Shown in pieces: positions 20,041 through 58,433 of a DNA stretch of 64,000 nucleotides. This DNA comes from Pirellulales bacterium (GTDB taxonomy: Bacteria; Planctomycetota; Planctomycetia; Pirellulales; UBA1268), in contig JAGYJY010000026.1 in NCBI GenBank assembly GCA_018401745.1, forward strand, positions 6,927-70,926, given 5' to 3'. The position numbers and the translations under genes were made by a program. The stretch's first letter is position 1. The number at the start of each line of letters is the position of its first letter. Under the pieces are notes generated by a model. That model saw only the letters and a list, made by a program, of their open reading frames with translations, had not been told where the DNA came from and did not search any database.

Positions 20041-20070
20041 GCCACCGCGACCTCTCAAGACCATCACAAA

Positions 20071-20109
20071 CCCTCCCCGGGCGGCCCACTGCCCGGGGAG
20101 GGTTTTTTT
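20071..20109 (+). terminator. Rho-independent terminator downstream of the C26 gene
   Basis: Perfect 12-bp GC stem CCCTCCCCGGGC / GCCCGGGGAGGG with an 8-nt loop, followed by T7 (20103-20109). It starts 31 nt after the stop codon. Confidence 0.8.
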
Positions 20110-20115
20110 CGGCAA

Positions 20116-20687
20116 GGAAACGGGACGGGTCCTCGGGCCGCGAAGCGGCCTCGGCGAAGCCGAGGTGCCTGCGGCACCCGAAGACCCGTCCCGCTTGCGC
20201 AGCACCCGCGCGCTGACGCCCACCGCACCGCCCCCCGCCCCGCTGCCCCCCGGCCGCAGACCGACGCGCAGCGGCGGACAGAAAAGGAAACGGGACGGGT
20301 CCTCGGGCCGCGAAGCGGCCTCGGCGGAGCCGAGGTGCCTGCGGCACCCGAAGACCCGTCCCGCTTGCGCAGCACCCGCGCGCTGACGCCCACCGCCCCG
20401 CTGCCCCCCGGCCGCAGACCGACGCGCAGCGGCGGACAGGCCGGCCCTTAAAACCGTAAGCGAGGGGTGAGCCCGGGCCGAATGAGCCGGCCTTGCAGTC
20501 GAGCGCAGCCCGGAGGGCGAAAGCGAGAATGCACGAGTGAGCGAAGCCAGGATGGCGAAGCGAACGCTCGGCGAATCGGCTTGGGCTCACCCCGAGCGAC
20601 CCCGAACGCTCGGCGAATCGGCTTGGGCTCACCCCGAGCGACCCCGAACGCTCGGCTCATCGGCTTAGGCTCACCCCGAGCGCCCCC
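20116..20687 (+). repeat. Composite structured intergenic repeat element, copy A (2 x ~170-nt hairpin modules + conserved core + 3 x 42-nt hairpin units)
   Basis: Module 20116-20285 is duplicated at 20286-~20443. The core 20447-20687 matches 28418-28658 with 6 mismatches in 241 nt by my count. Tandem 42-nt units lie at 20562-20603, 20604-20645 and 20646-20687. Confidence 0.9.
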
Positions 20688-22700: not shown

Positions 22701-25040
22701 TCAGCGGCCGGGCATGCGGGGCTGCCGCTCCCAGCGGAGCTGATACCGGTCTTCCAGACCCTCGATCCACCGCTCAAACACGCCGGCATACGACTGCTGG
22801 GCAACCTGGTCGATCGGCATGGTGTCGTCACGACGGACGAGAAACTGCGCTCGAAGTTCTGAGTCGGGGGGCGATAGCGAGAGCAGTCGGATGCAGTAGC
22901 AGACCGTCTGCGGCTCGTTGAAGGCGGCGGCCGTTTCACCAGGGGCGAGCGAAAACGCTGCCTTCATAAAGTCGTTGCCCGGCAGGAAGGCTCCAGGCGG
23001 CTGCGACAGCTGCGGCATGCCGCTGGCCACGTCGTACCAGGCAAACGGTCCAACCTGCGTCATGGTGACATCGCCGCGGTCGGTCGCGAGCTGCTCAAGC
23101 GAGACGTCGCGGCTCCGGGCCTGCTCGGCAAGTTCTTCAGCCTCTTTGCGGGCCAGGTCGCGGGCCTCCATGATTCGCCAGGCCTTTTCGACGTTGTCTC
23201 GGGCAGCCGCGAAGGTGGGGACAAACTCCGGCTGATCCTGAGTCTTCCAGGAGAGGAAACGGGCTCCGAGCATGTCGCGAGACGTCTGCGGCCGGAGCGT
23301 CATGGAGTTCTCACCAAACATCATCTCCAGCCATGACCTCTGGCGAATCCCAAACCGGCTGCCTGGATCGGGCACGAGCTCAAAGCTCCGGCCAATACCA
23401 GGCTCCTCGGCTGCATCGACAGGGGCCACGAGCTCGGATCGCCCGGCCGTGAGGCCCTGCGTCTCGGCAATCTTGTCGAAATCGGGCGGCGTGGGAGGCT
23501 CTGTGCCGGTTTCGCCGCGTGCCTGCCAGAGGGCGTAGTCTTCTCCGTAGGCTGTCAGGTCGGCTGCCACGGCCGAAAAGATGGCGTCAATCTGGGCTTC
23601 GGCCTTCTCGGCCGCGAGCAGGTCGCGAATCTCTTCGGTGACCTCAGCCAAGGGCCTGAATCCGTCGTTGGCAAGAGGATCTGCGGCAGGGGGCTCAGCC
23701 TCACTCGTCGCTTCAGCAGCAGGCTCGGCAGCAGGCTCGGCAGCAGGCTCGGCAGCAGGCTCGGCAGCAGGCTCGGCAGCAGGCTCGGCAGCAGGCTCGG
23801 CAGCAGGCTCGGCAGCAGGCTCGGCAGCTTCTGCCGCTTCAGTTGATTCGACGGGAGGCGACGACTCGCTGGCAGCAGCCTCCTCCTCGCCGTCAGCCTG
23901 CCGGGCCGATGTCAGCACAAACGGCGACCTCCTGCGAGGCAGCGCAGCCCCGTCTGTTGTTTCAGCAGCAGGTTCCTCAGCAGCAGGTTCCTCAGCAGCA
24001 GGTTCCTCAGCAGCAGGTTCCTCAGCAGCAGGTTCCTCAGCAGCAGGTTCCTCAGCAGCAGGCTCCTCAGCAGCAGGCTCCTCAGCAGCAGGCTCCTCAG
24101 CAGCAGGAGCCTCAGCAGCAGGAGCCTCAGCAGCAGGAGCCTCAGCAGCAGGTGCCTCAGCAGCAGGGGCCGTTCCGGCAGCAGCCCGGTAGCGAGTCGC
24201 CTTGTTTTGTTCGTAGTAGGCGGCGATCTCCTCGTCAGTTACGTCTGGCTTGAAACGATCCACAAACGCTGTGCGATCTGCCGTGAGATACTCAAACGCC
24301 ACGCGATGAGGCTCGCGGAAGCCCGGATTCGCGCTTGAGGGCTCCGGCAGCAGCTCCTTGTAGTCGTCGTACAGTGCCTCCAGGACGGAATCCGAGGGAG
24401 CCTCAACGCGGTCGGCCAGCGACTCGCAGGTGACCGGGATCACCTCGACGATCGCCTTCTGCTCGAGCCGGCGAAATGCATCCCACCGCCAGCCGGGCGG
24501 GTCTCCGGAAAAGCCAGTCTGGAAAAGCAGGAGCATGTTGCGGGCCGTGAGCTCATACCGCAGCGCCTCGAAGACATCGGGCTCTGAAACGCTGAGCCTA
24601 CCCAGTTGCAAACTGCCGAGGATCTGATTGAACTGCTCTGCCCGCACCTGGCTGTTGGTCCATTCAGCCAGAAAATCGTTGACGGAGCGGTCGGTCACCA
24701 CGATCCCGACGTTTCGTGCTTCTTCCACGAGCAGCCGCGTGCGAACAACAGCGTCTTCACTTTCAGGAAAGAGGGGCAGCCTCGATGGGTCGCGGCCCGC
24801 CTGCACAGCCGCTTCCAGCAGGAAGCGGTTGAGCACCGCCCGCATCGTGACCGACCGTTCGAGATCACTCTCTCGGATCTCGCCACCGCTCCAGCGGGCG
24901 ACCAGCGGATCGCCTGCCAGCGTGCTGCTTCCCATCTGCAGAAACGGAGGCAACACAAAGAAGGCGAGCATCGCCATGATGGCCACAAAGACCAGCAACG
25001 ACTTTTGATAGCGGCGAAAAACGTCGAACGAACCGGCCAT
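22701..25040 (-). CDS. Membrane-anchored periplasmic chaperone-like protein (PpiD/SurA N-terminal-domain-like) with long acidic Ala/Glu/Pro repeat linker
   Basis: N-terminal signal anchor (LLVFVAIMAMLAFFVLPPF), followed by a SurA_N-like region. The centre has 13 x (AAE[A/E]P) and 9 x (EPAA). The CDS is solid; the functional call is tentative. Confidence 0.5.
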   Translation of the reverse strand: MAGSFDVFRRYQKSLLVFVAIMAMLAFFVLPPFLQMGSSTLAGDPLVARWSGGEIRESDLERSVTMRAVLNRFLLEAAVQAGRDPSRLPLFPESEDAVVRTRLLVEEARNVGIVVTDRSVNDFLAEWTNSQVRAEQFNQILGSLQLGRLSVSEPDVFEALRYELTARNMLLLFQTGFSGDPPGWRWDAFRRLEQKAIVEVIPVTCESLADRVEAPSDSVLEALYDDYKELLPEPSSANPGFREPHRVAFEYLTADRTAFVDRFKPDVTDEEIAAYYEQNKATRYRAAAGTAPAAEAPAAEAPAAEAPAAEAPAAEEPAAEEPAAEEPAAEEPAAEEPAAEEPAAEEPAAEEPAAEEPAAETTDGAALPRRRSPFVLTSARQADGEEEAAASESSPPVESTEAAEAAEPAAEPAAEPAAEPAAEPAAEPAAEPAAEPAAEPAAEATSEAEPPAADPLANDGFRPLAEVTEEIRDLLAAEKAEAQIDAIFSAVAADLTAYGEDYALWQARGETGTEPPTPPDFDKIAETQGLTAGRSELVAPVDAAEEPGIGRSFELVPDPGSRFGIRQRSWLEMMFGENSMTLRPQTSRDMLGARFLSWKTQDQPEFVPTFAAARDNVEKAWRIMEARDLARKEAEELAEQARSRDVSLEQLATDRGDVTMTQVGPFAWYDVASGMPQLSQPPGAFLPGNDFMKAAFSLAPGETAAAFNEPQTVCYCIRLLSLSPPDSELRAQFLVRRDDTMPIDQVAQQSYAGVFERWIEGLEDRYQLRWERQPRMPGR
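23715..23826 (-). repeat. In-frame tandem repeat, about 9 x 12 bp (encodes EPAA)
   Basis: Unit gcagcaggctcg is repeated head-to-tail on the + strand inside CDS 22701..25040. Confidence 0.9.
23950..24165 (-). repeat. In-frame tandem repeat, about 13 x 15 bp (encodes AAEEP / AAEAP)
   Basis: Units cagcaggttcctcag, cagcaggctcctcag and cagcaggagcctcag are repeated head-to-tail. The three sequence variants are clustered in blocks. Confidence 0.9.
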
Positions 25041-25279: not shown

Positions 25280-28042
25280 ATGGCGAAAAAACCCTCCGCT
25301 GGCGGCAAACCGTTGGTGATCGTCGAGTCTCCCGCGAAGGCTCGCACCATCTCGAAGTTTCTCGGAGGCAGCTACAACGTCGAGGCCAGCGTGGGGCACA
25401 TCCGCGACCTGCCGCACAACGCGGCGGAGGTGCCTGCCGCGATGCGAGGCAAGCCCTGGGCAAGAATGGGCGTCAACATCGATGAGGATTTTGCCCCGAT
25501 CTACATCGTGTCGCCGCAGAAGAAGAAGCAGGTTGACAAGCTCAAGGCCCTCCTCGCCCAGGCCCCTGCCCTCTATCTGGCAACAGACGAAGACCGCGAG
25601 GGCGAGGCCATTAGCTGGCATCTGACCGAGGTGCTCAAGCCGCGGGTGGAGGTGCACCGGCTCGTGTTTCACGAGATCACGAGGTCGGCCATCGAGGCTG
25701 CCCTGGAGCATCCACGAACGATCAACACGTCGCTCGTCGATGCGCAAGAGACCCGACGCATTCTCGACCGGCTCTACGGCTACGAGGTCTCACCTCTGCT
25801 CTGGAAGAAGGTGGGCCCTAAGCTCTCGGCGGGCCGTGTGCAGAGCGTGGCGGTGCGGCTGCTCGTGGAGCGGGAGCGGGCTCGGATGGCCTTTCGTTCC
25901 GGCACCTGGTGGGATCTTTCGGCGGTGTTTGCCGCGAGGCCACCGCACCCGTCGGCAGGCTTTGACGCCCGGCTCACCAGCCTCGCCGGCCGCCCGTTGG
26001 CCAAGGGGAGCGACTTCGATTCAGCGACCGGCCGATTGAAAAACGAGCGTGCGCTGCTCCTCGACGAGCAGGCCGCAGTCGACCTGCGAAACCAGTTGGA
26101 AACGGCGTCGTTTCGGGTGGCTGCCCGGGAAGACAAGCCCTTCACCCAGCGGCCGAGCCCACCGTTCACCACCAGCTCGCTGCAGCAGGAGGCCAACCGC
26201 AAGTGCGGCTTCACCGCCCGCCGCACGATGCAGGTGGCCCAGTCGCTCTATGAAAACGGCCACATCACCTACATGCGAACCGACTCAACGTCGCTGGCGG
26301 GCGAGGCGATCGCCGCCATCCGCAGGACGGTGGAGAAGCTCTACGGGGCCAGCCACCTGCCTGCCTCGCCACGGACCTACCGCACGAAAGTCGCCAACGC
26401 CCAGGAAGCCCACGAAGCGATCCGACCGGCCGGCACGGGCATGCCCACGCCTGAGTCGCTTCGCGGTCGGGTCGACGCCGACGGCCTGCGGCTCTACTCG
26501 CTGATCTGGAAGCGGACGATCGCCTGCCAGATGGCAGAGGCCCGCGGCCAGCAGACCACGCTCTGCATCGAGGCCGATCTCGCCGACGGCACACAGGCCC
26601 GCTTCACCGCCAGCGGCAAGACGATCGAGTTTGCCGGTTTTCTGCGAGCCTACGTGGAGGGCTCCGACGATCCTGCCGCAGACCTGGCCGACAAGGAGAC
26701 CATCCTGCCGCCGCTGGCGGTGGGAGATGCTGTCGACTGCCGCCTGCTGGAAGCCGCCAGCCACACCACGCAGCCGCCCGCCCGCTACACCGAAGCGACG
26801 CTGACAAAAGCCCTGGAAGAAAAGGGTATCGGCCGACCCAGCACCTACGCCGCCACGATCGACACGATCCAGCGGAGAGCGTATTGCTGCAAACGGGGCA
26901 ACGCGCTCGTGCCCACCTGGGTGGGCTTTGCCGTCTGCCAGCTCCTGGAGCAGAGCCTGCCAACCCTGATCGACTACGCCTTCACCGCAGGGATGGAAGA
27001 CGAGCTCGACGGCATCAGCCGAGGAGAAGGTGAGAAGGTCGGCTACCTCAAGAAGTTTTACTTCGGCAACGGCAAGCCCGGCCTCAAGAAACTGCTTGAA
27101 GACGCGGAGACCAAGATCGATCCCCGAAAAGCGAGCAGCATTCCGATCACAGACGACGTGGTGGTGCGTGTCGGCCGGTATGGCCCGTTCATTGAAGATG
27201 CCGAAGGCCGCCGGGCGACGCTGCCTCCCGAAGAGAAGCTCGCCCCGGATGAGCTCACAGCAGAGCGGTGTGCGGAGCTGCTGTCGAAGTCGTCGCAGGC
27301 GGATGAGCCGCTCGGGCATTGCCCCAAGACGGGGCTCCCCGTGTATGCCAAGAACGGCCGCTTCGGGCCGTATGTGCAGCTCGGCGATGCGGAAGAAGGC
27401 GGCTCCAAGCCGAAGTCGGCGTCGCTGCTCAAGGGCATGTCGCTGGAAACGATCGACCTGATCACCGCGGTTCGGCTGCTCGAACTCCCCCGTTCGCTCG
27501 GAGTGCATCCACAGAGCGGCAAGGAGATCACCGCCCTCAACGGTCGTTACGGCCCCTACATCACCTGCGATGGCGACTCGCGGAGCCTGCCAGACAATCT
27601 CTCGCCCCTGGACATCACCCTTCCCGAAGCCGTGCACCTGCTCAAGCAGCCAAAGGCCCGCGGCACGCGATCAGCCCCCGCAACATTGCAGACCCTCGGC
27701 ACGTCCCCGGTCACCGCCAAACCGGTCGTGCTCCTCAACGGCCGCTACGGCCCCTACGTCAGCGACGGTGAAACCAACGCCTCCCTTCCCAAGGGCACCG
27801 CGAGCAACGCCATGACCCTCAACAGCGCCCTCGCCCTACTCGCCACCCGCGCCGCCGCCGGCCCCCGTCGCGGCCGTGGCGGCAGAAGGACGGCCGCAAA
27901 GAAAGCCACCTCGAAAGCAGCAGCCAAAAAGGCCGCCATCAAAAAATCGGCCCCGAAAAAAGCCGCAAAGACAAAGGTCGCAAAGAAGAAGGCGACCACC
28001 AAGAAAACAGCCACAAAGAAAACGGCCAAGAAAGAAAGCTGA
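25280..28042 (+). CDS. topA: DNA topoisomerase I (type IA) with zinc-free repeat C-terminal domain and lysine-rich tail
   Basis: TOPRIM LVIVESPAKARTISKFLG and active-site region GHITYMRTDS. Four G(R)(Y/F)GP(Y/F) C-terminal repeats (VGRYGPFIE, NGRFGPYVQ, NGRYGPYIT, NGRYGPYVS). The tail is AAKKATSKAAAKKAAIKKSAPKKAAKTKVAKKKATTKKTATKKTAKK. Confidence 0.92.
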   Translation: MAKKPSAGGKPLVIVESPAKARTISKFLGGSYNVEASVGHIRDLPHNAAEVPAAMRGKPWARMGVNIDEDFAPIYIVSPQKKKQVDKLKALLAQAPALYLATDEDREGEAISWHLTEVLKPRVEVHRLVFHEITRSAIEAALEHPRTINTSLVDAQETRRILDRLYGYEVSPLLWKKVGPKLSAGRVQSVAVRLLVERERARMAFRSGTWWDLSAVFAARPPHPSAGFDARLTSLAGRPLAKGSDFDSATGRLKNERALLLDEQAAVDLRNQLETASFRVAAREDKPFTQRPSPPFTTSSLQQEANRKCGFTARRTMQVAQSLYENGHITYMRTDSTSLAGEAIAAIRRTVEKLYGASHLPASPRTYRTKVANAQEAHEAIRPAGTGMPTPESLRGRVDADGLRLYSLIWKRTIACQMAEARGQQTTLCIEADLADGTQARFTASGKTIEFAGFLRAYVEGSDDPAADLADKETILPPLAVGDAVDCRLLEAASHTTQPPARYTEATLTKALEEKGIGRPSTYAATIDTIQRRAYCCKRGNALVPTWVGFAVCQLLEQSLPTLIDYAFTAGMEDELDGISRGEGEKVGYLKKFYFGNGKPGLKKLLEDAETKIDPRKASSIPITDDVVVRVGRYGPFIEDAEGRRATLPPEEKLAPDELTAERCAELLSKSSQADEPLGHCPKTGLPVYAKNGRFGPYVQLGDAEEGGSKPKSASLLKGMSLETIDLITAVRLLELPRSLGVHPQSGKEITALNGRYGPYITCDGDSRSLPDNLSPLDITLPEAVHLLKQPKARGTRSAPATLQTLGTSPVTAKPVVLLNGRYGPYVSDGETNASLPKGTASNAMTLNSALALLATRAAAGPRRGRGGRRTAAKKATSKAAAKKAAIKKSAPKKAAKTKVAKKKATTKKTATKKTAKKES

Positions 28043-28180
28043 AAATAAGGGGAGACCGCGCGCGGGTGGTCCGGCTCGGCAGGCGGCAAAAGTCGCGTCG
28101 CTGGGCCAGGATAGGCCAAACGCTCCGCGAGCGTTCGCCGACCCGCCGAGCCTCCCCTTTCCTGTCAATGAGCGAACGCA

Positions 28181-28658
28181 GGAAACGGGACGGGTCCTCG
28201 GGCCGCGAAGCGGCCTCGGCGAAGCCGAGGTGCCTGCGGCACCCGAAGACCCGTCCCGCTTGCGGCCGAACCGGTCCCGGCCGCGAGACCGACGCCGAAG
28301 CCGGCGGCCTGCGGCACCCGAAGACCCGTCCCGCTTGCGCAGCCCTACCCCGCGCCCACCCCGCCCAGCCCCGCCTTCCCCGGCCGCAGATCGCCGCGAA
28401 GCGGCGAACAGGCCGTCCTTAAACCCGTAAGCGAGGGGTGAGCCCGGGCCGAATGAGCCGGCCTTGCAGTCGAGCGAAGCCCGGAGGGCGAAAGCGAGAA
28501 TGCACGAGTGAGCGAAGCCAGGATGGCGAAGCGAACGCTCGGCGAATCGGCTTGGGCTCACCCCGAGCGACCCCGAACGCTCGGCGAATCGGCTTGGGCT
28601 CACCCCGAGCGACCCCGAACGCTCGGCTCATCGGCCCGGGCTCACCCCGAGCGACCCC
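28181..28658 (+). repeat. Composite structured intergenic repeat element, copy B
   Basis: Same hairpin module (28181-~28265, partial second copy ~28307-28345), same core (28418-28658) and the same 3 x 42-nt units (28533-28574, 28575-28616, 28617-28658) as copy A. Lies between the convergent topA and acpS genes. Confidence 0.9.
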
Positions 28659-57086: not shown

Positions 57087-58433
57087 ATGCTCTCGATCTT
57101 TGGCGGCAAGCAAACGCTCTGTACGGGGAGTCGTCGCGACTTCCTCACGATCGGCGGCCTTTCGTTTGGCTGCGGAGGGCTTTCCCTCGCCGGCGTGCTG
57201 CGGCAGGCGGAGGCGGCCTCCACGCCGCCGGCACAGCGGCACAAGTCGGTGATCAACATCTTTCTCGGCGGTGGGCCGCCGCATCAGGATCTCTGGGATC
57301 TCAAGCCCGACGCTCCCAGCGAGATCCGGGGAGAGTTTCGCCCGATCGGCACCAACGTTCCGGGCATTGAGATCTGCGAGGTCTTTCCGCAGCTCGCCCA
57401 GCGGATGGACCGCTGCGCGATCATTCGCTCGGTCGTTGGCTGCGAGGGAGCCCACGCTTCGTTTCAGTGCATGACAGGCTGGTCGGAGAGCAGCCTCCGC
57501 ACAATCGGCGGGCGGCCGTCGATGGGCGCCGTGGTGTCGCGGCTGAAAGGCCCGGTCGATCCAGCGGTGCCTCCATTTGTGGGCCTTGCGGCTCCCACCA
57601 GCCATCGCCCTTGGTCCGATTCCGGCACACCAGGCTTCCTGGGGCCTGCCTACTCCCCCTTCAAGCCGGAGGGCCGCGACCTTGAGAACATGACGCTCCG
57701 CTCCATGTCGCTCGACCGTCTCCACGACCGCCAGCGGCTGCTGGCGGAGATCGACACCCTCCGTCGTGATGTCGATGCCACGGGCATCCTCGACGGTATG
57801 GACAGCTTCGGGCAGCGGGCCTTCGATGTGCTCACCGGCAGTCGGCTGCTCGATGCGCTCGACCTGGAGAAGGAGGATCCCGACGTCCGCGCCGCCTACG
57901 GCGATGGGAAGCCTTACCAGTATCAGTATGACGGCGCGCCGACCTGCAACGACCACCTGCTGATCGCCCGCAGGCTGATTGAGGCAGGGGTGCGGGTGGT
58001 GAGCCTCAGCTACGGCCGCTGGGACAGCCACGGGCAAAACTTCAACCTTGTCCGCGACCATGGCGGCAAACTCGACCAGTGCCTCTCGGCCCTGATCGAC
58101 GACCTCACCGAGCGAGGCATGATCGACGATGTGGCGATTGTTGTCTGGGGAGAGTTTGGCCGCACGCCAAAGATCAATCCCCAGGCAGGTCGCGACCACT
58201 GGCCGCAGGTGAGCACCGCGCTGCTTGCCGGCGGCGGCCTGCGGACAGGCCAGGTGATCGGCGCCACCAACAAGCTTGGCGAGCATGCCACCGACCGCCC
58301 GGTGCACATGCAGGAAATCACCGCCACCCTCTACCACGCCCTCGGCATCTCCACCGCCGACACCACGATCATCGACATGACCGGCCGGCCACAGTTCCTC
58401 GTCGAACACCAGCCCATCGCCGAACTGGTCTGA
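57087..58433 (+). CDS. DUF1501 domain-containing protein with Tat signal
   Basis: ATG 57087 MLSIFGGKQTLCTGSRRDFLTIGG (twin-arginine signal), GGGPPHQDLWDLKP and GEFGRTPKINPQAGRDHWP. Confidence 0.88.
   Translation: MLSIFGGKQTLCTGSRRDFLTIGGLSFGCGGLSLAGVLRQAEAASTPPAQRHKSVINIFLGGGPPHQDLWDLKPDAPSEIRGEFRPIGTNVPGIEICEVFPQLAQRMDRCAIIRSVVGCEGAHASFQCMTGWSESSLRTIGGRPSMGAVVSRLKGPVDPAVPPFVGLAAPTSHRPWSDSGTPGFLGPAYSPFKPEGRDLENMTLRSMSLDRLHDRQRLLAEIDTLRRDVDATGILDGMDSFGQRAFDVLTGSRLLDALDLEKEDPDVRAAYGDGKPYQYQYDGAPTCNDHLLIARRLIEAGVRVVSLSYGRWDSHGQNFNLVRDHGGKLDQCLSALIDDLTERGMIDDVAIVVWGEFGRTPKINPQAGRDHWPQVSTALLAGGGLRTGQVIGATNKLGEHATDRPVHMQEITATLYHALGISTADTTIIDMTGRPQFLVEHQPIAELV

Follow-up and report, generated by a model that had tools for sequence, protein, structure and literature searches.

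Two copies of one intergenic element were found in the window, by which we mean the whole 64,000-nucleotide stretch of Pirellulales DNA that was analysed. Copy A (20116-20687) occupies the spacer between the gene of a Peptidase_C26 protein and glgB, and is composed of two modules of ~170 nt, an 18-nt arm and three 42-nt units. It starts ~10 nt past the intrinsic terminator of the Peptidase_C26 gene; an earlier, sequence-only reading had placed a terminator there, and a perfect stem followed by a T-run was indeed present (Table 1). The tandem modules, offset by 170 nt, are 96% identical (20114-20239 vs 20284-20409) and their tails 98% identical (20229-20281 vs 20387-20439). In module 1 the segment GGGACGGGT (20122-20130) pairs with ACCCGTCCC (20184-20192) and the hairpins H1 to H3 are enclosed. 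The left arm of the core, GGGGTGAGCCCGGGCCGA (20464-20481), is 83-89% complementary to each of the three units, each of which carries its own CGCTCGG/CCGAGCG stem, and the tandem array as a whole (20561-20687) holds 3.0 copies of 42 nt with 95% matches. Repeat and inverted-repeat analysis agreed with the earlier description of these modules, arm and units, and the claim of a composite, strongly structured and repeated intergenic element held in position as well as in form.

Table 1. Positions of the element modules and of the preceding terminator in the window.
Feature	Position	Strand	Description
Intrinsic terminator of the upstream Peptidase_C26 gene	20068-20112	+	15-bp perfect stem, 8-nt loop, T7
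Copy A, cloverleaf (four-way-junction) module 1	20116-20200	+	outer 16-bp stem, 20122-20137 with 20177-20192
Module 1 hairpin H1	20138-20148	+	CCGC-GAA-GCGG
Module 1 hairpin H2	20149-20165	+	CCTCGGC-GAA-GCCGAGG
Module 1 hairpin H3	20166-20176	+	TGCC-TGC-GGCA
C-rich, G-poor spacer 1	20201-20250	+	sequence and length differ among copies
Mini-hairpin 1	20251-20281	+	CCGACGC-GCA-GCGGCGG
Cloverleaf module 2	20286-20370	+	outer stem 20292-20307 with 20347-20362; tandem duplicate of module 1
C-rich spacer 2	20371-20408	+	C:G bias
Mini-hairpin 2	20409-20443	+	outer CGGCC/GGCCG stem; two covarying pairs
A/T-rich linker	20444-20457	+	fastest-evolving part of the element
Core, 145 nt	20458-20602	+	left arm 20464-20481, interior 20486-20565, unit 1 (20561-20602) bearing the right arm
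Tandem 42-nt units 2 and 3	20603-20686	+	unit 3 of the 'TCA' type, extending arm complementarity
Copy B, extra 5' hairpin module M0	28047-28178	+	arms GGCTCGGCAGGCGG and CCGACCCGCCGAGCC
Copy B, cloverleaf module	28181-28265	+	cloverleaf 28187-28257; identical to copy A module 1
Copy B, short hairpins, 3' half-cloverleaf, C-rich spacer and mini-hairpin	28266-28416	+	half-cloverleaf at 28307-28339
Copy B, mini-hairpin	28381-28415	+	TCGCCGC-GAA-GCGGCGA
Copy B, core and units 2 and 3	28429-28657	+	core 28429-28573, units 28574-28657

Copy B (~28047-28657) lies 8 kb away on the same strand, and its core is 98% identical to that of copy A, which itself scored 173 bits against our covariance model R1. 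The additional module M0 of copy B starts 5 nt past the stop codon of topA. M0 was common to five further loci (L010, L011, L012, L013 and L077), and by inspection it stands, with arm-like sequence, at the 5' end of the long copies. Unit 3 of copy B is a perfect complement of the arm. In almost every copy, the + strand of the C-rich spacer has a C:G ratio of ~2:1.

No credible open reading frame had been seen in the element at first reading, and six-frame translation revealed neither a frame conserved with sensible ends nor an ORF shared between the copies. High GC content gives rise to many spurious stems and long ORFs, and several reading frames run through the core without a stop, so that chance structure, an assembly artefact or a small protein gene had to be weighed. 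However, the + frame gains a stop in two loci (L014 and L022) and the frames run on into unrelated flanks. Only 11 predicted proteins matched among 1.8 billion cluster representatives. All eight that were retrieved had the look of spurious read-through ORFs or of simple repeats unrelated to the element, and a protein query chimerised from the six frames gave one read-through ORF. Against dinucleotide-preserving shuffles the fold z-scores were -4.1 for the core and -3.7 for the modules with RNA parameters, -4.9 to -5.4 for the cloverleaf as DNA, and -5.6 for the whole of copy B. Compensatory changes were seen in the stems (below), and the same element was recovered in independent assemblies from several studies. 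Together these observations leave this explanation with practically no probability.

The first reading had found no named non-coding RNA, and the searches of RNA families led to the same result. Rfam 15 at the gathering threshold, applied to the window and 12 loci, reported only a tRNA elsewhere in the window; in E-value mode the best matches of both copies were microRNA models at 22-25 bits, far below the cut-offs of 78-196, and were taken as noise. We concluded that the element is not a recognisable RNA gene. No sigma-70-like promoter was detected in either copy, and inspection of the interior by eye gave no convincing sigma-54 or ECF-type promoter. With blastn, copy A had no match in plasmid and phage collections. 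Among viral contigs a 20-mer had 0 hits; two 16-mers had 18 and 20, with matches of 23 nt at most, which we took as chance. An Acidobacteria match (L001) consisting of a bare 20-mer was dropped. Relationship to a retron/msDNA, an attC site, a CRISPR array or a group II intron fragment was discarded as well: no reverse transcriptase or integrase was nearby, there were no spacers, and Rfam lent no support.

Each ~170-nt module had been described as a long imperfect hairpin. The pairing proposed for it is present, but a four-way junction describes the 85-nt module better. RNAfold returns the long rod as its minimum-energy structure, but the rod is disrupted in variant copies and was rejected in favour of the cloverleaf; under DNA parameters, module 1 reaches its minimum energy as the cloverleaf itself (z -4.9). 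Across the aligned copies 97.4% of the cells in the cloverleaf were paired and seven pairs had changed on both sides, a score that was reached by none of 500 shuffles. Two pairs covaried in the mini-hairpin (C-G/U-A and C-G/A-U), and in the arm helix six pairs had changes on both sides, the two arms of diverged cores changing together. Compensatory changes, the covariation asked for by the sequence-only reading, thus support the cloverleaf hairpins, the mini-hairpin and the arm helix; the interior helices were invariant in the core set used for covariation. Loops and linkers drifted, but compensatory change preserved the stems.

The ~80-nt interior was the most constant part. It differed at 0-3 of 80 positions in all copies except the two of L078 (10-11), and in L077 there were two differences in 80 interior positions vs 19 in 65 arm positions. 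One orthologous pair of copies (L008 and L014) differed at 8 of 206 element positions, five of them in the A/T-rich linker and none in the stems supported by covariation (cloverleaf, mini-hairpin, arm), whereas the neighbouring intergenic DNA differed at 13 of 129 positions (Fisher p = 0.0009, linker excluded). In this pair the structured parts evolved ~6 times more slowly than the adjacent intergenic DNA.

Approx. 25 further copies were found at unrelated loci in related metagenomes, on seven contigs of one Planctomycetaceae MAG and on 14 other metagenome contigs. Most were situated at contig ends, as expected for repeats that break assemblies. The flanking genes were unrelated housekeeping genes, for example GluRS-, LysRS- and glycosyltransferase-like ones, as judged by eye from conserved motifs. 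In a fully syntenic relative with a 90% identical GlgB (L028) the C26-glgB spacer measured 191 nt vs 713 nt in the window, and the topA-acpS spacer 39 nt vs ~630 nt; no module of the element occurred anywhere in L028-L034 (~22 kb). Since both sites of the window are empty in this relative, copies A and B are insertions. The Peptidase_C26 terminator was present at the empty site too. In relatives with 99% (TrpS) and 97% (GlgB) identity the sites were occupied.

Modules were gained, lost, duplicated and swapped among the copies. The number of cloverleafs ranged from 0 to 2 with partial tandem 5' duplications, the core occurred without other modules in L073, and L077 contained three left arms together with three right units. 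At the copy A locus of the 97% relative, units of ~100 nt stood in place of the 42-nt units. A copy may be pictured as a string of modules, namely an optional M0, the cloverleafs, the C-rich spacer, the mini-hairpin, the A/T-rich linker, the core and its units. In the core a long arm helix closes the sequence-invariant interior, and the 42-nt units bearing the right arm were counted from 1 to at least 4 per copy.

The insertion polymorphism, the inverted repeats of 18-25 nt that bound the core even where it stands alone, and the joint change of both arms, as if one protein bound the two ends, would suit a classical MITE with terminal inverted repeats (TIRs). Such an element would be moved by the DDE transposase of a resident IS, with the arms as TIRs and the other modules as nested or neighbouring insertions. 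The sequences AGCGA and GAGCGA, which bracket every core examined (~20), could be read in its favour as well. However, this bracket is identical at every core and therefore behaves as part of the element, and comparison with the empty sites of L028 gave no target-site duplication at copy A or copy B, at 10% divergence and with junctions good to a few bases. Further, the tandem 42-nt unit takes in sequence beyond the supposed TIR, the interior and not the termini is most conserved, recognition of TIRs does not explain the covarying cloverleaf hairpins of 4-7 bp, and no IS with matching ends was seen near the copies. We consider a classical MITE improbable.

Other junction motifs were recorded. 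The cloverleaf was preceded by GAAC or AAAC and followed by GCTTGC in all 12 occurrences listed, and RAAC stood before every cloverleaf; the empty site of copy A in L028 contains GCAAC, although this junction is not base-exact. GTAAG preceded the core, with CTCAG or TCCAG in its place in half of the copies. Neither a transposase nor a partner gene was detected beside any copy, using Pfam at the loci of the relatives and inspection of ten flanking ORFs by eye, and the two ORFs adjoining the L077 copy belonged to no Pfam family.

The sequence-only reading had argued for a + strand RNA from arm mismatches that were mostly G opposite T. The count itself was reproduced, with 8 G-T vs 3 A-C mismatches as distinct states, but the G-T cases stem from C/T polymorphism at two adjacent positions of one CCCGGG motif. 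In the standard cloverleaf the mismatches are A-C on the + strand, corresponding to G-U on the - strand, and the cloverleaf folds equally well on both strands; the + strand core, in turn, folds better than the - strand core. The ratio of G-U to A-C was accordingly set aside as not decisive for the functional strand, and with equal cloverleaf folding and no promoter-like site the inference of a + strand RNA was not established.

Co-orientation with the upstream gene, also claimed at first, was inconsistent: by our own reading of the flanking ORFs, the upstream gene was co-oriented at eight and divergent at four of the 12 scorable loci. An earlier tally of 6 to 3 gave a binomial p of 0.5, and for 8 to 4 we estimate ~0.4. 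Relative to the downstream gene the early tally was 6 to 6. The GC skew of the flanks, taken in the orientation of the element, was negative at 10 of 18 loci with a mean of 0, a weak test as the contigs were 1-7 kb long. No orientation bias thus shows with respect to the upstream gene, the downstream gene or GC skew.

A structured + strand RNA family, with its own promoter or as part of the 3' UTR of the upstream gene, would account for some of these data. In cis it might stabilise 3' ends or cause termination, the C-rich tract possibly loading Rho; in trans it might be an sRNA or a ribozyme encoded in many copies. The strong folds with supported covariation, the excess of G-U-compatible arm mismatches, the better folding of the + strand core, the C-rich and G-poor spacer on this strand, and a near-invariant interior suggestive of sequence-specific function are consistent with it, as are the eight copies just 3' of a co-oriented gene; in other bacteria, REP-type repeats mostly follow genes, and action as RNA is plausible for them (PMC3733652). 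On the other hand, no Rfam family was hit even at permissive thresholds, neither copy A nor copy B has a sigma-70-like promoter, and copy A sits behind an efficient-looking terminator. With a divergent upstream gene at four loci, and with the L077 copy placed between two genes of the opposite strand, + strand read-through would not occur there. The G-U signal comes from two adjacent sites only, the cloverleaf shows A-C mismatches on the + strand at equal stability on both strands, the module content is too variable for one defined RNA, and RNA makes much weaker GNA triloops than DNA does (PMC13037366). On balance we regard a + strand RNA family as unlikely.

The + strand is distinguished in another way. 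In 22 copies the motif GCGNAGC occurred 94 times on the + strand vs 9 times on the - strand, a + strand density of ~8.8 per kb compared with a background of 0.5 per kb per strand (~17-fold). The interior of copy A contains four GCGNAGC or GCGNNAGC motifs (at 20503, 20517, 20541 and 20555), and the two polymorphic interior sites of the close copies coincide with the N of GCGNAGC motifs. GNA loops are enriched and not obligatory, as ATA, ACA and TCCT loops occur in many copies. As DNA, mini-hairpins of the GCGNAGC type are exceptionally stable, nuclease-resistant and poorly bound by SSB; d(GCGAAGC) melts at 76 °C, whereas the sole reported RNA version, r(GCGAAAGC), melts at 39 °C (PMC13037366). 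The motifs are known from the primase start sites of G4-type phages, from ssiA and from the hairpin promoters of N4 (PMC13037366).

This enrichment on one strand could point to a single-stranded DNA signal that is used by the host and was spread and kept by host selection, its + strand hairpins and interior working once the duplex is opened, e.g. an SSB-excluding entry site for primase or primosome, a recombinase or topoisomerase site as in BIMEs, or a site of fork pausing. The interior conserved beyond the arms and the slow evolution of the structured parts in the orthologous pair fit such a signal. But the element is missing from the 90% GlgB relative at both sites and over ~22 kb, and hence is dispensable; no orientation bias vs GC skew was seen and the architecture of the copies is highly variable. 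Moreover the + strand is the C-rich strand of the window and, if it is the leading-strand template, would be less exposed as ssDNA. We judge a host-used signal to be very improbable.

The reading that we prefer, and hold to be likely but by no means certain, is that copies A and B belong to a lineage-restricted, noncoding, mosaic family of interspersed repeats that is non-autonomous and whose modules fold when single-stranded. The family is previously undescribed, comes from an uncultured lineage of Pirellulales (Planctomycetota) and is akin to the mosaic intergenic repeats of other bacteria, with a resemblance to BIME, BOX or MITE elements. We infer that it spreads as a mobile element which is non-autonomous and has to fold when single-stranded, and that the folding strand is the + strand, DNA being at least as likely as RNA; this strand is packed with GCGNAGC motifs that are very stable as DNA. 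Mobilisation would occur in trans by an enzyme encoded outside the window, and as no target-site duplication was found, a single-strand-specific transposase of the HUH type is the leading candidate. Against this stands the lack of an orientation bias relative to GC skew, which would be expected of IS200/IS605-type elements, although the test on short contigs is weak. The numbers of units and modules would shift by slippage or unequal recombination at the hairpins, and any effect on the host would be secondary, for instance where transcripts are insulated or ended near the ends of genes. Instead of selfish propagation, a function for the host or gene conversion could be the reason why stems are conserved between orthologous copies.

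An interior more conserved than the termini suggests a sequence-specific function, which is left unaccounted for by the mobile-repeat explanation. The invariant interior might be a functional single-stranded nucleic-acid device, either an ssDNA platform for a primase, recombinase or HUH enzyme or the RNA scaffold of a mobile guide or ribozyme, and to this we assign a low probability. Its four GCGNAGC-type mini-hairpins would then form the device, with the cloverleaf and tandem arms serving as accessories in folding or processing. If this were true, it would represent an undescribed class of chromosomal element built around DNA mini-hairpins.

A literature search yielded no comparable element in Planctomycetota, the sole mention being a survey of simple GTAG-tagged REPs in the phylum. 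The present work adds a well-documented case from an uncultured lineage that has received little study, namely a mosaic repeat under structural constraint. For a natural sequence it is unusually dense in d(GCGNAGC), on one strand only, and its interior is more conserved than its ends. The element breaks short-read assemblies and spawns spurious ORF calls, and a model of it is useful for annotation. If an enzyme or transcript reading it were found, it could offer a handle on ssDNA transactions or gene-end regulation in Planctomycetota.

Among known systems, PATEs are non-autonomous derivatives of IS200/IS605 that lack TIRs with target-site duplication and have strand-specific subterminal hairpins, a conserved 5' motif and a variable 3' flank. 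The element resembles them in the absence of a TIR-plus-TSD signature, in its strand-specific hairpins, perhaps in the 5' motif RAAC, and in a variable 3' flank. It differs in that its left- and right-end structures are unrelated, no GC-skew bias was detected on contigs of 1-7 kb and no TnpA or TnpB gene is nearby. The origins of phages G4, St-1 and alpha3, ssiA and the promoters of the N4 vRNAP share with it GCGNAGC or GCGNNAGC in clustered hairpins on one strand (PMC13037366). Those are single sites in phage or plasmid replicons with priming or promoter activity, which is not known for the element; the latter is a multicopy chromosomal repeat with the motif scattered along it.

REPs are simple imperfect palindromes of 20-40 nt with an unpaired GTAG or CGTC at one end, and their hairpin is recognised as ssDNA by a Y1 HUH transposase (RAYT) without target-site duplication (PMC3733652). 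Like REPs, BIMEs and REPINs, the present element consists of hairpin-forming extragenic repeats in mosaics, located in gaps between unidirectional or convergent genes and mostly downstream of coding regions. Reduction to an ordinary REP, which the first reading had allowed for, is not warranted by the definition cited: the modules measure 35-145 nt (a two-tier hairpin of 35 nt, a four-way junction of 85 nt and a core of 145 nt), and RAAC is found on the 5' side in place of a GTAG or CGTC tag. The spacer of a REPIN is less conserved than its REPs, whereas in the present element the arms vary more than the interior, and no RAYT gene was seen beside the copies. MITEs such as Correia, ERIC, RUP and Nezha are small, noncoding and highly paired; their ends are inverted repeats, their insertions are polymorphic and they may influence neighbouring transcripts (PMC3049150). 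The inverted core arms, the lack of coding capacity and the presence/absence polymorphism are shared features. Unlike typical MITEs, in which the termini are most conserved, the element is most conserved in its interior; it is GC-rich and not AT-rich, has mosaic, variable modules, and is without target-site duplication or an identified cognate IS.

BOX of Streptococcus pneumoniae (boxA, n x boxB, boxC) is a modular noncoding intergenic repeat whose end modules pair as a stem-loop; a module of ~45 nt is repeated in tandem in numbers that vary by locus and strain, related species have extra modules, target-site duplications are not apparent, and it is uncertain which enzyme mobilises BOX (PMC3049150). 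The pairing end modules (arm and unit) and the tandem 42-nt unit are close parallels. Sequence homology to streptococcal boxA, boxB or boxC is very unlikely given GC content and phylum, BOX having been compared by description. The 42-nt unit is the right arm with its flank and not an internal spacer, and L077 repeats the left arm as well. To the general plan of BOX the element adds the cloverleaf, M0, the mini-hairpin and the C-rich spacer, together with an invariant interior, in a high-GC planctomycete host.

Copy A lies directly behind the gene scoring as Peptidase_C26, which is closed by a stem and T-run, and ends 67 nt before the start of glgB. The sequence-only reading had placed it after an intrinsic terminator of the C26 gene and had described two tandem modules, an 18-nt arm and three 42-nt units bearing the complement of that arm. 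All of this was confirmed; the tails of the two modules are 98% identical, with lengths that differ by 12 nt. Copy B was found 7971 bp further downstream in the same orientation. It takes up the whole topA-acpS spacer, starting 5 nt after the topA stop codon. Compared to copy A, it has a 5' hairpin module and a half-cloverleaf as extra parts.

Coordinates of the repeat copies and other features (window positions unless a locus from a relative is named)
Feature	Position	Observation
Stem and T-run	20068-20112	perfect 15-bp stem, directly 5' of copy A
Copy A tandem modules	20114-20239, 20284-20409	96% identity
Copy A arm	20464-20481	GGGGTGAGCCCGGGCCGA
Copy A interior	20486-20565	about 80 nt, closed by the arm helix, almost invariant
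Copy A 42-nt units (three, tandem)	20561-20687	each 83-89% complementary to the arm
Polymorphic interior sites of close copies	20506, 20558	each the N of a GCGNAGC motif
Copy B start	~28047	
Copy B core	28417-28658	98% identity to copy A
topA 3' end	27955-28037	15-nt repeats encoding a Lys/Ala-rich C-terminal tail
ORF of 779 aa, - strand	22701-25040	SurA_N-like N-terminus
Perfect tandem repeats in this ORF	23716-24167	in-frame, 12-nt (9.4 copies) and 15-nt (13.7 copies)
tRNA gene	45923-45996	the only one in the window
Low-GC segment	45923-48000	GC 0.54 vs 0.61-0.72 elsewhere
Two ORFs, - strand	46421-47170, 47646-48131	no Pfam match
56-nt direct repeat	917-972, 58149-58204	79% identity, 57 kb apart
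Copy A orthologous locus	L027:1-172	at least two ~100-nt 'type 2' units instead of 42-nt units
Diverged member	L077:2789-3110	left arm (45-nt unit) triplicated like the right unit
Two copies on one contig	L073:1349-1501, 2503-2647	one 94% identical, the other barely recognisable (nhmmer E = 0.001)

Other features were noted in the window. The low-GC segment adjoins the 3' side of the tRNA gene, is about 2 kb long and may be a small foreign islet inserted there. The repeat-containing 779-aa ORF is in conserved synteny, with a counterpart of 683 aa in L028, the relative with approx. 90% identical GlgB. The 56-nt direct repeat has no relation to the element and probably reflects a motif conserved between paralogous genes.

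From a comparison of about 25 copies we distinguished seven kinds of module. M0, a 5' hairpin, is present in copy B and in loci L012, L011, L013 and L077 of relatives, and truncated in L010. It is followed in our list by an 85-nt cloverleaf, a C-rich, G-poor spacer of variable sequence and length, a two-tier mini-hairpin with two covarying pairs, an A/T-rich linker of about 13 nt that is the fastest-changing part of the element, a 145-nt core, and the 42-nt unit, which consists of the right arm and its flank. The covariance model R1 of the core recovered all copies at 145-176 bits. Most copies have a single 42-nt unit; L011, L020 and L022 have two, the window copies three and L025 at least four. 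Further hairpin modules, M3 and M4, are gained and lost between copies, and in L073 the core stands alone directly 3' of a stop codon. Both L073 copies lie 3' of genes with what appears to be a PEP-CTERM-like C-terminal sorting signal, and the well-conserved one starts inside the gene's apparent stop codon. In L077 a single interior is flanked by three left and three right arms; M0-, M3- and M4-type modules lie upstream, and there is no cloverleaf. The L025 copy (FUWD013101052.1) also has no cloverleaf; the approx. 350 nt upstream of it contained no ORF and gave no Rfam match.

All folds tested were far better than those of dinucleotide-preserving shuffles. The core and the modules had z of -4.1 and -3.7, respectively, as RNA, and the cloverleaf as DNA had -4.9 (+ strand) and -5.4 (- strand); for the entire copy B z was -5.6. 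In the cloverleaf, three hairpins follow one another without linker bases inside a 16-bp outer stem. Among its nine distinct versions 97.4% of the cells were paired, as compared to only 34-45% when the partners were slid, and both sides had changed in seven pairs; the observed score was reached by none of 500 shuffles. One position of the outer stem is imperfect in all versions. The module had previously been drawn as one long imperfect hairpin; its enclosing stem and mini-hairpins are retained in our model, but the alternative rod fold, the preference of RNAfold for the window copy, was rejected. It is broken by the L026 and L019 variants, whose H1 and H3 stems are wholly different in sequence and still self-complementary. 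In the long arm helix of the core six pairs had changed on both sides, e.g. U-A to C-G in L078 and C-G to U-A in L077. Covariation across copies, which the sequence-only reading had named as a check, was thus present in the cloverleaf, the mini-hairpin and the arm helix. The few changes in the interior would fit its predicted helices, being U-G wobbles or, in L078, a putative short hairpin with one base less on each side.

The exact arm 20-mer was found on seven contigs of one uncultured Planctomycetaceae MAG, and an interior 20-mer on 18 metagenome contigs, four of them duplicates of MAG contigs. Most matches were less than 100 nt from a contig end, as is typical of repeats that interrupt short-read assembly. 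The flanks are mutually unrelated and hold ordinary-looking genes, by eye and without family search (GluRS, LysRS, a glycosyltransferase, a DUF1553-like protein). In the relative with approx. 90% identical GlgB, a member of the Pirellulales according to NCBI, synteny with the window is complete, but the C26-glgB spacer is 191 nt instead of 713 nt, the topA-acpS spacer 39 nt instead of approx. 630 nt, and no element module was detected anywhere in its loci. Copies A and B are therefore both insertions. The copy B site is occupied, with the same three-unit layout, in relatives from three samples whose TrpS is 99% identical; their contigs end inside it. The copy A site of the relative with 97% identical GlgB (L027) is likewise filled and has an identical 3' junction, but the array next to this junction is built of ~100-nt units that match the 3' half of the core. 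Structure can therefore turn over rapidly while the insertion stays fixed.

The insertions occupy spacers at gene ends or between operons. Copy A follows a terminator, copy B separates convergent genes, and the copies elsewhere lie 0-30 nt from stop codons. This placement fits survival where insertion is harmless. Comparison of the window copies with the empty sites showed no target-site duplication, although the 10% divergence of the empty-site relative limits the resolution of the junctions to a few bases. The inverted ends, small size, lack of an ORF and insertion polymorphism are those of a TIR-type MITE; as the duplication expected of one was not seen, we regard this assignment as quite improbable.

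A + strand RNA had been proposed from G-U-compatible mismatches. This argument proved weak: the nine distinct arm/unit states contain 8 G-T, 3 A-C and 3 other mismatches, and the G-T cases come down to a C/T polymorphism at two adjacent positions. The standard cloverleaf carries A-C mismatches on the + strand and folds equally on either strand. Copy A sits behind a terminator, no promoter-like site was found in the element, and the upstream gene, from our reading of the flanking ORFs, is divergent in 4 loci as against co-oriented in 8. A family of + strand ncRNAs is thus unlikely.

The heptamer GCGNAGC is the stronger strand signal. It occurs 18 times in the two window copies versus 33 times in the other 62.8 kb, and its reverse complement once. 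Over 22 copies, which are homologous so that counts are not independent, the + strand carried 94 and the - strand 9, with a background of 0.5 per kb per strand; the consensus holds about seven distinct sites, all on the same strand. Many copies also contain non-GNA loops (ATA, ACA, TCCT). No bias of orientation with respect to local GC skew was found. The cumulative skew falls steadily over window 1-64000 (C > G on the + strand), which suggests that the whole window belongs to one replichore and that the + strand is the C-rich one. The mini-hairpins formed by d(GCGNAGC) and d(GCGNNAGC) are extraordinarily stable, resist nucleases and are poorly bound by SSB (Kimoto and Hirao, PMC13037366). The Tm of d(GCGAAGC) is 76 °C, compared to 39 °C for r(GCGAAAGC), the single RNA version reported, and such motifs are known at G4-type phage primase sites, ssiA and N4 hairpin promoters (PMC13037366). 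Given the strand bias and this published stability, folding of the + strand as single-stranded DNA is at least as plausible as folding as RNA.

Two orthologous copies, L008 and L014, differed at 7/383 positions in the coding flank, 13/129 in non-element intergenic DNA and 8/206 in the element. Of these eight, five fell in the linker, two changed hairpin loops and one changed a variable interior site, whereas the covariation-supported stems of cloverleaf, mini-hairpin and arm were free of differences (intergenic DNA vs element minus linker, Fisher p = 0.0009). In diverged copies the interior was best conserved, with 2/80 differences in L077 compared to 19/65 in arms and unit, the opposite of the pattern in typical MITEs and REPINs. 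Mobility alone does not explain this. Candidate causes are gene conversion between copies and a sequence-specific reader, and with such invariance a functional reading stays conceivable. Use by the host as a single-stranded-DNA signal is very improbable in our judgement.

A non-autonomous, mosaic interspersed repeat that folds as a single strand is the best-supported interpretation. The element is dispersed, polymorphic in insertion and subject to module turnover, and its structure is maintained by compensatory changes. Some enzyme would mobilise it in trans, an HUH-type single-strand transposase being our leading guess because no target-site duplication was found and the hairpins are strand-specific. 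Units may expand by slippage or unequal recombination, and effects on neighbouring transcripts would be only secondary.

The feature is real, and its family appears to be undescribed. In line with the sequence-only reading, which recognised no named ncRNA in it, it matched no Rfam family. We found no comparable planctomycete element in the literature, and the one relevant paper reports simple GTAG-tagged REPs alone for Planctomycetota (PMC3733652). By type we classify the family among the mosaic interspersed intergenic repeats. Its unusual traits are a four-way junction supported by covariation, the density of DNA mini-hairpin motifs on one strand, and an interior conserved above its ends. Its genomic habitat and single-strand hairpins are also those of REP/BIME elements, but it is neither a simple palindrome of 20-40 nt nor tagged with GTAG or CGTC, the features that define REPs (PMC3733652). 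The closest architectural analogue is the pneumococcal BOX, whose two end modules pair with each other and enclose a ~45-nt module present in a variable number of tandem copies (PMC3049150), whereas in the Pirellulales element the repeated unit is the arm itself.
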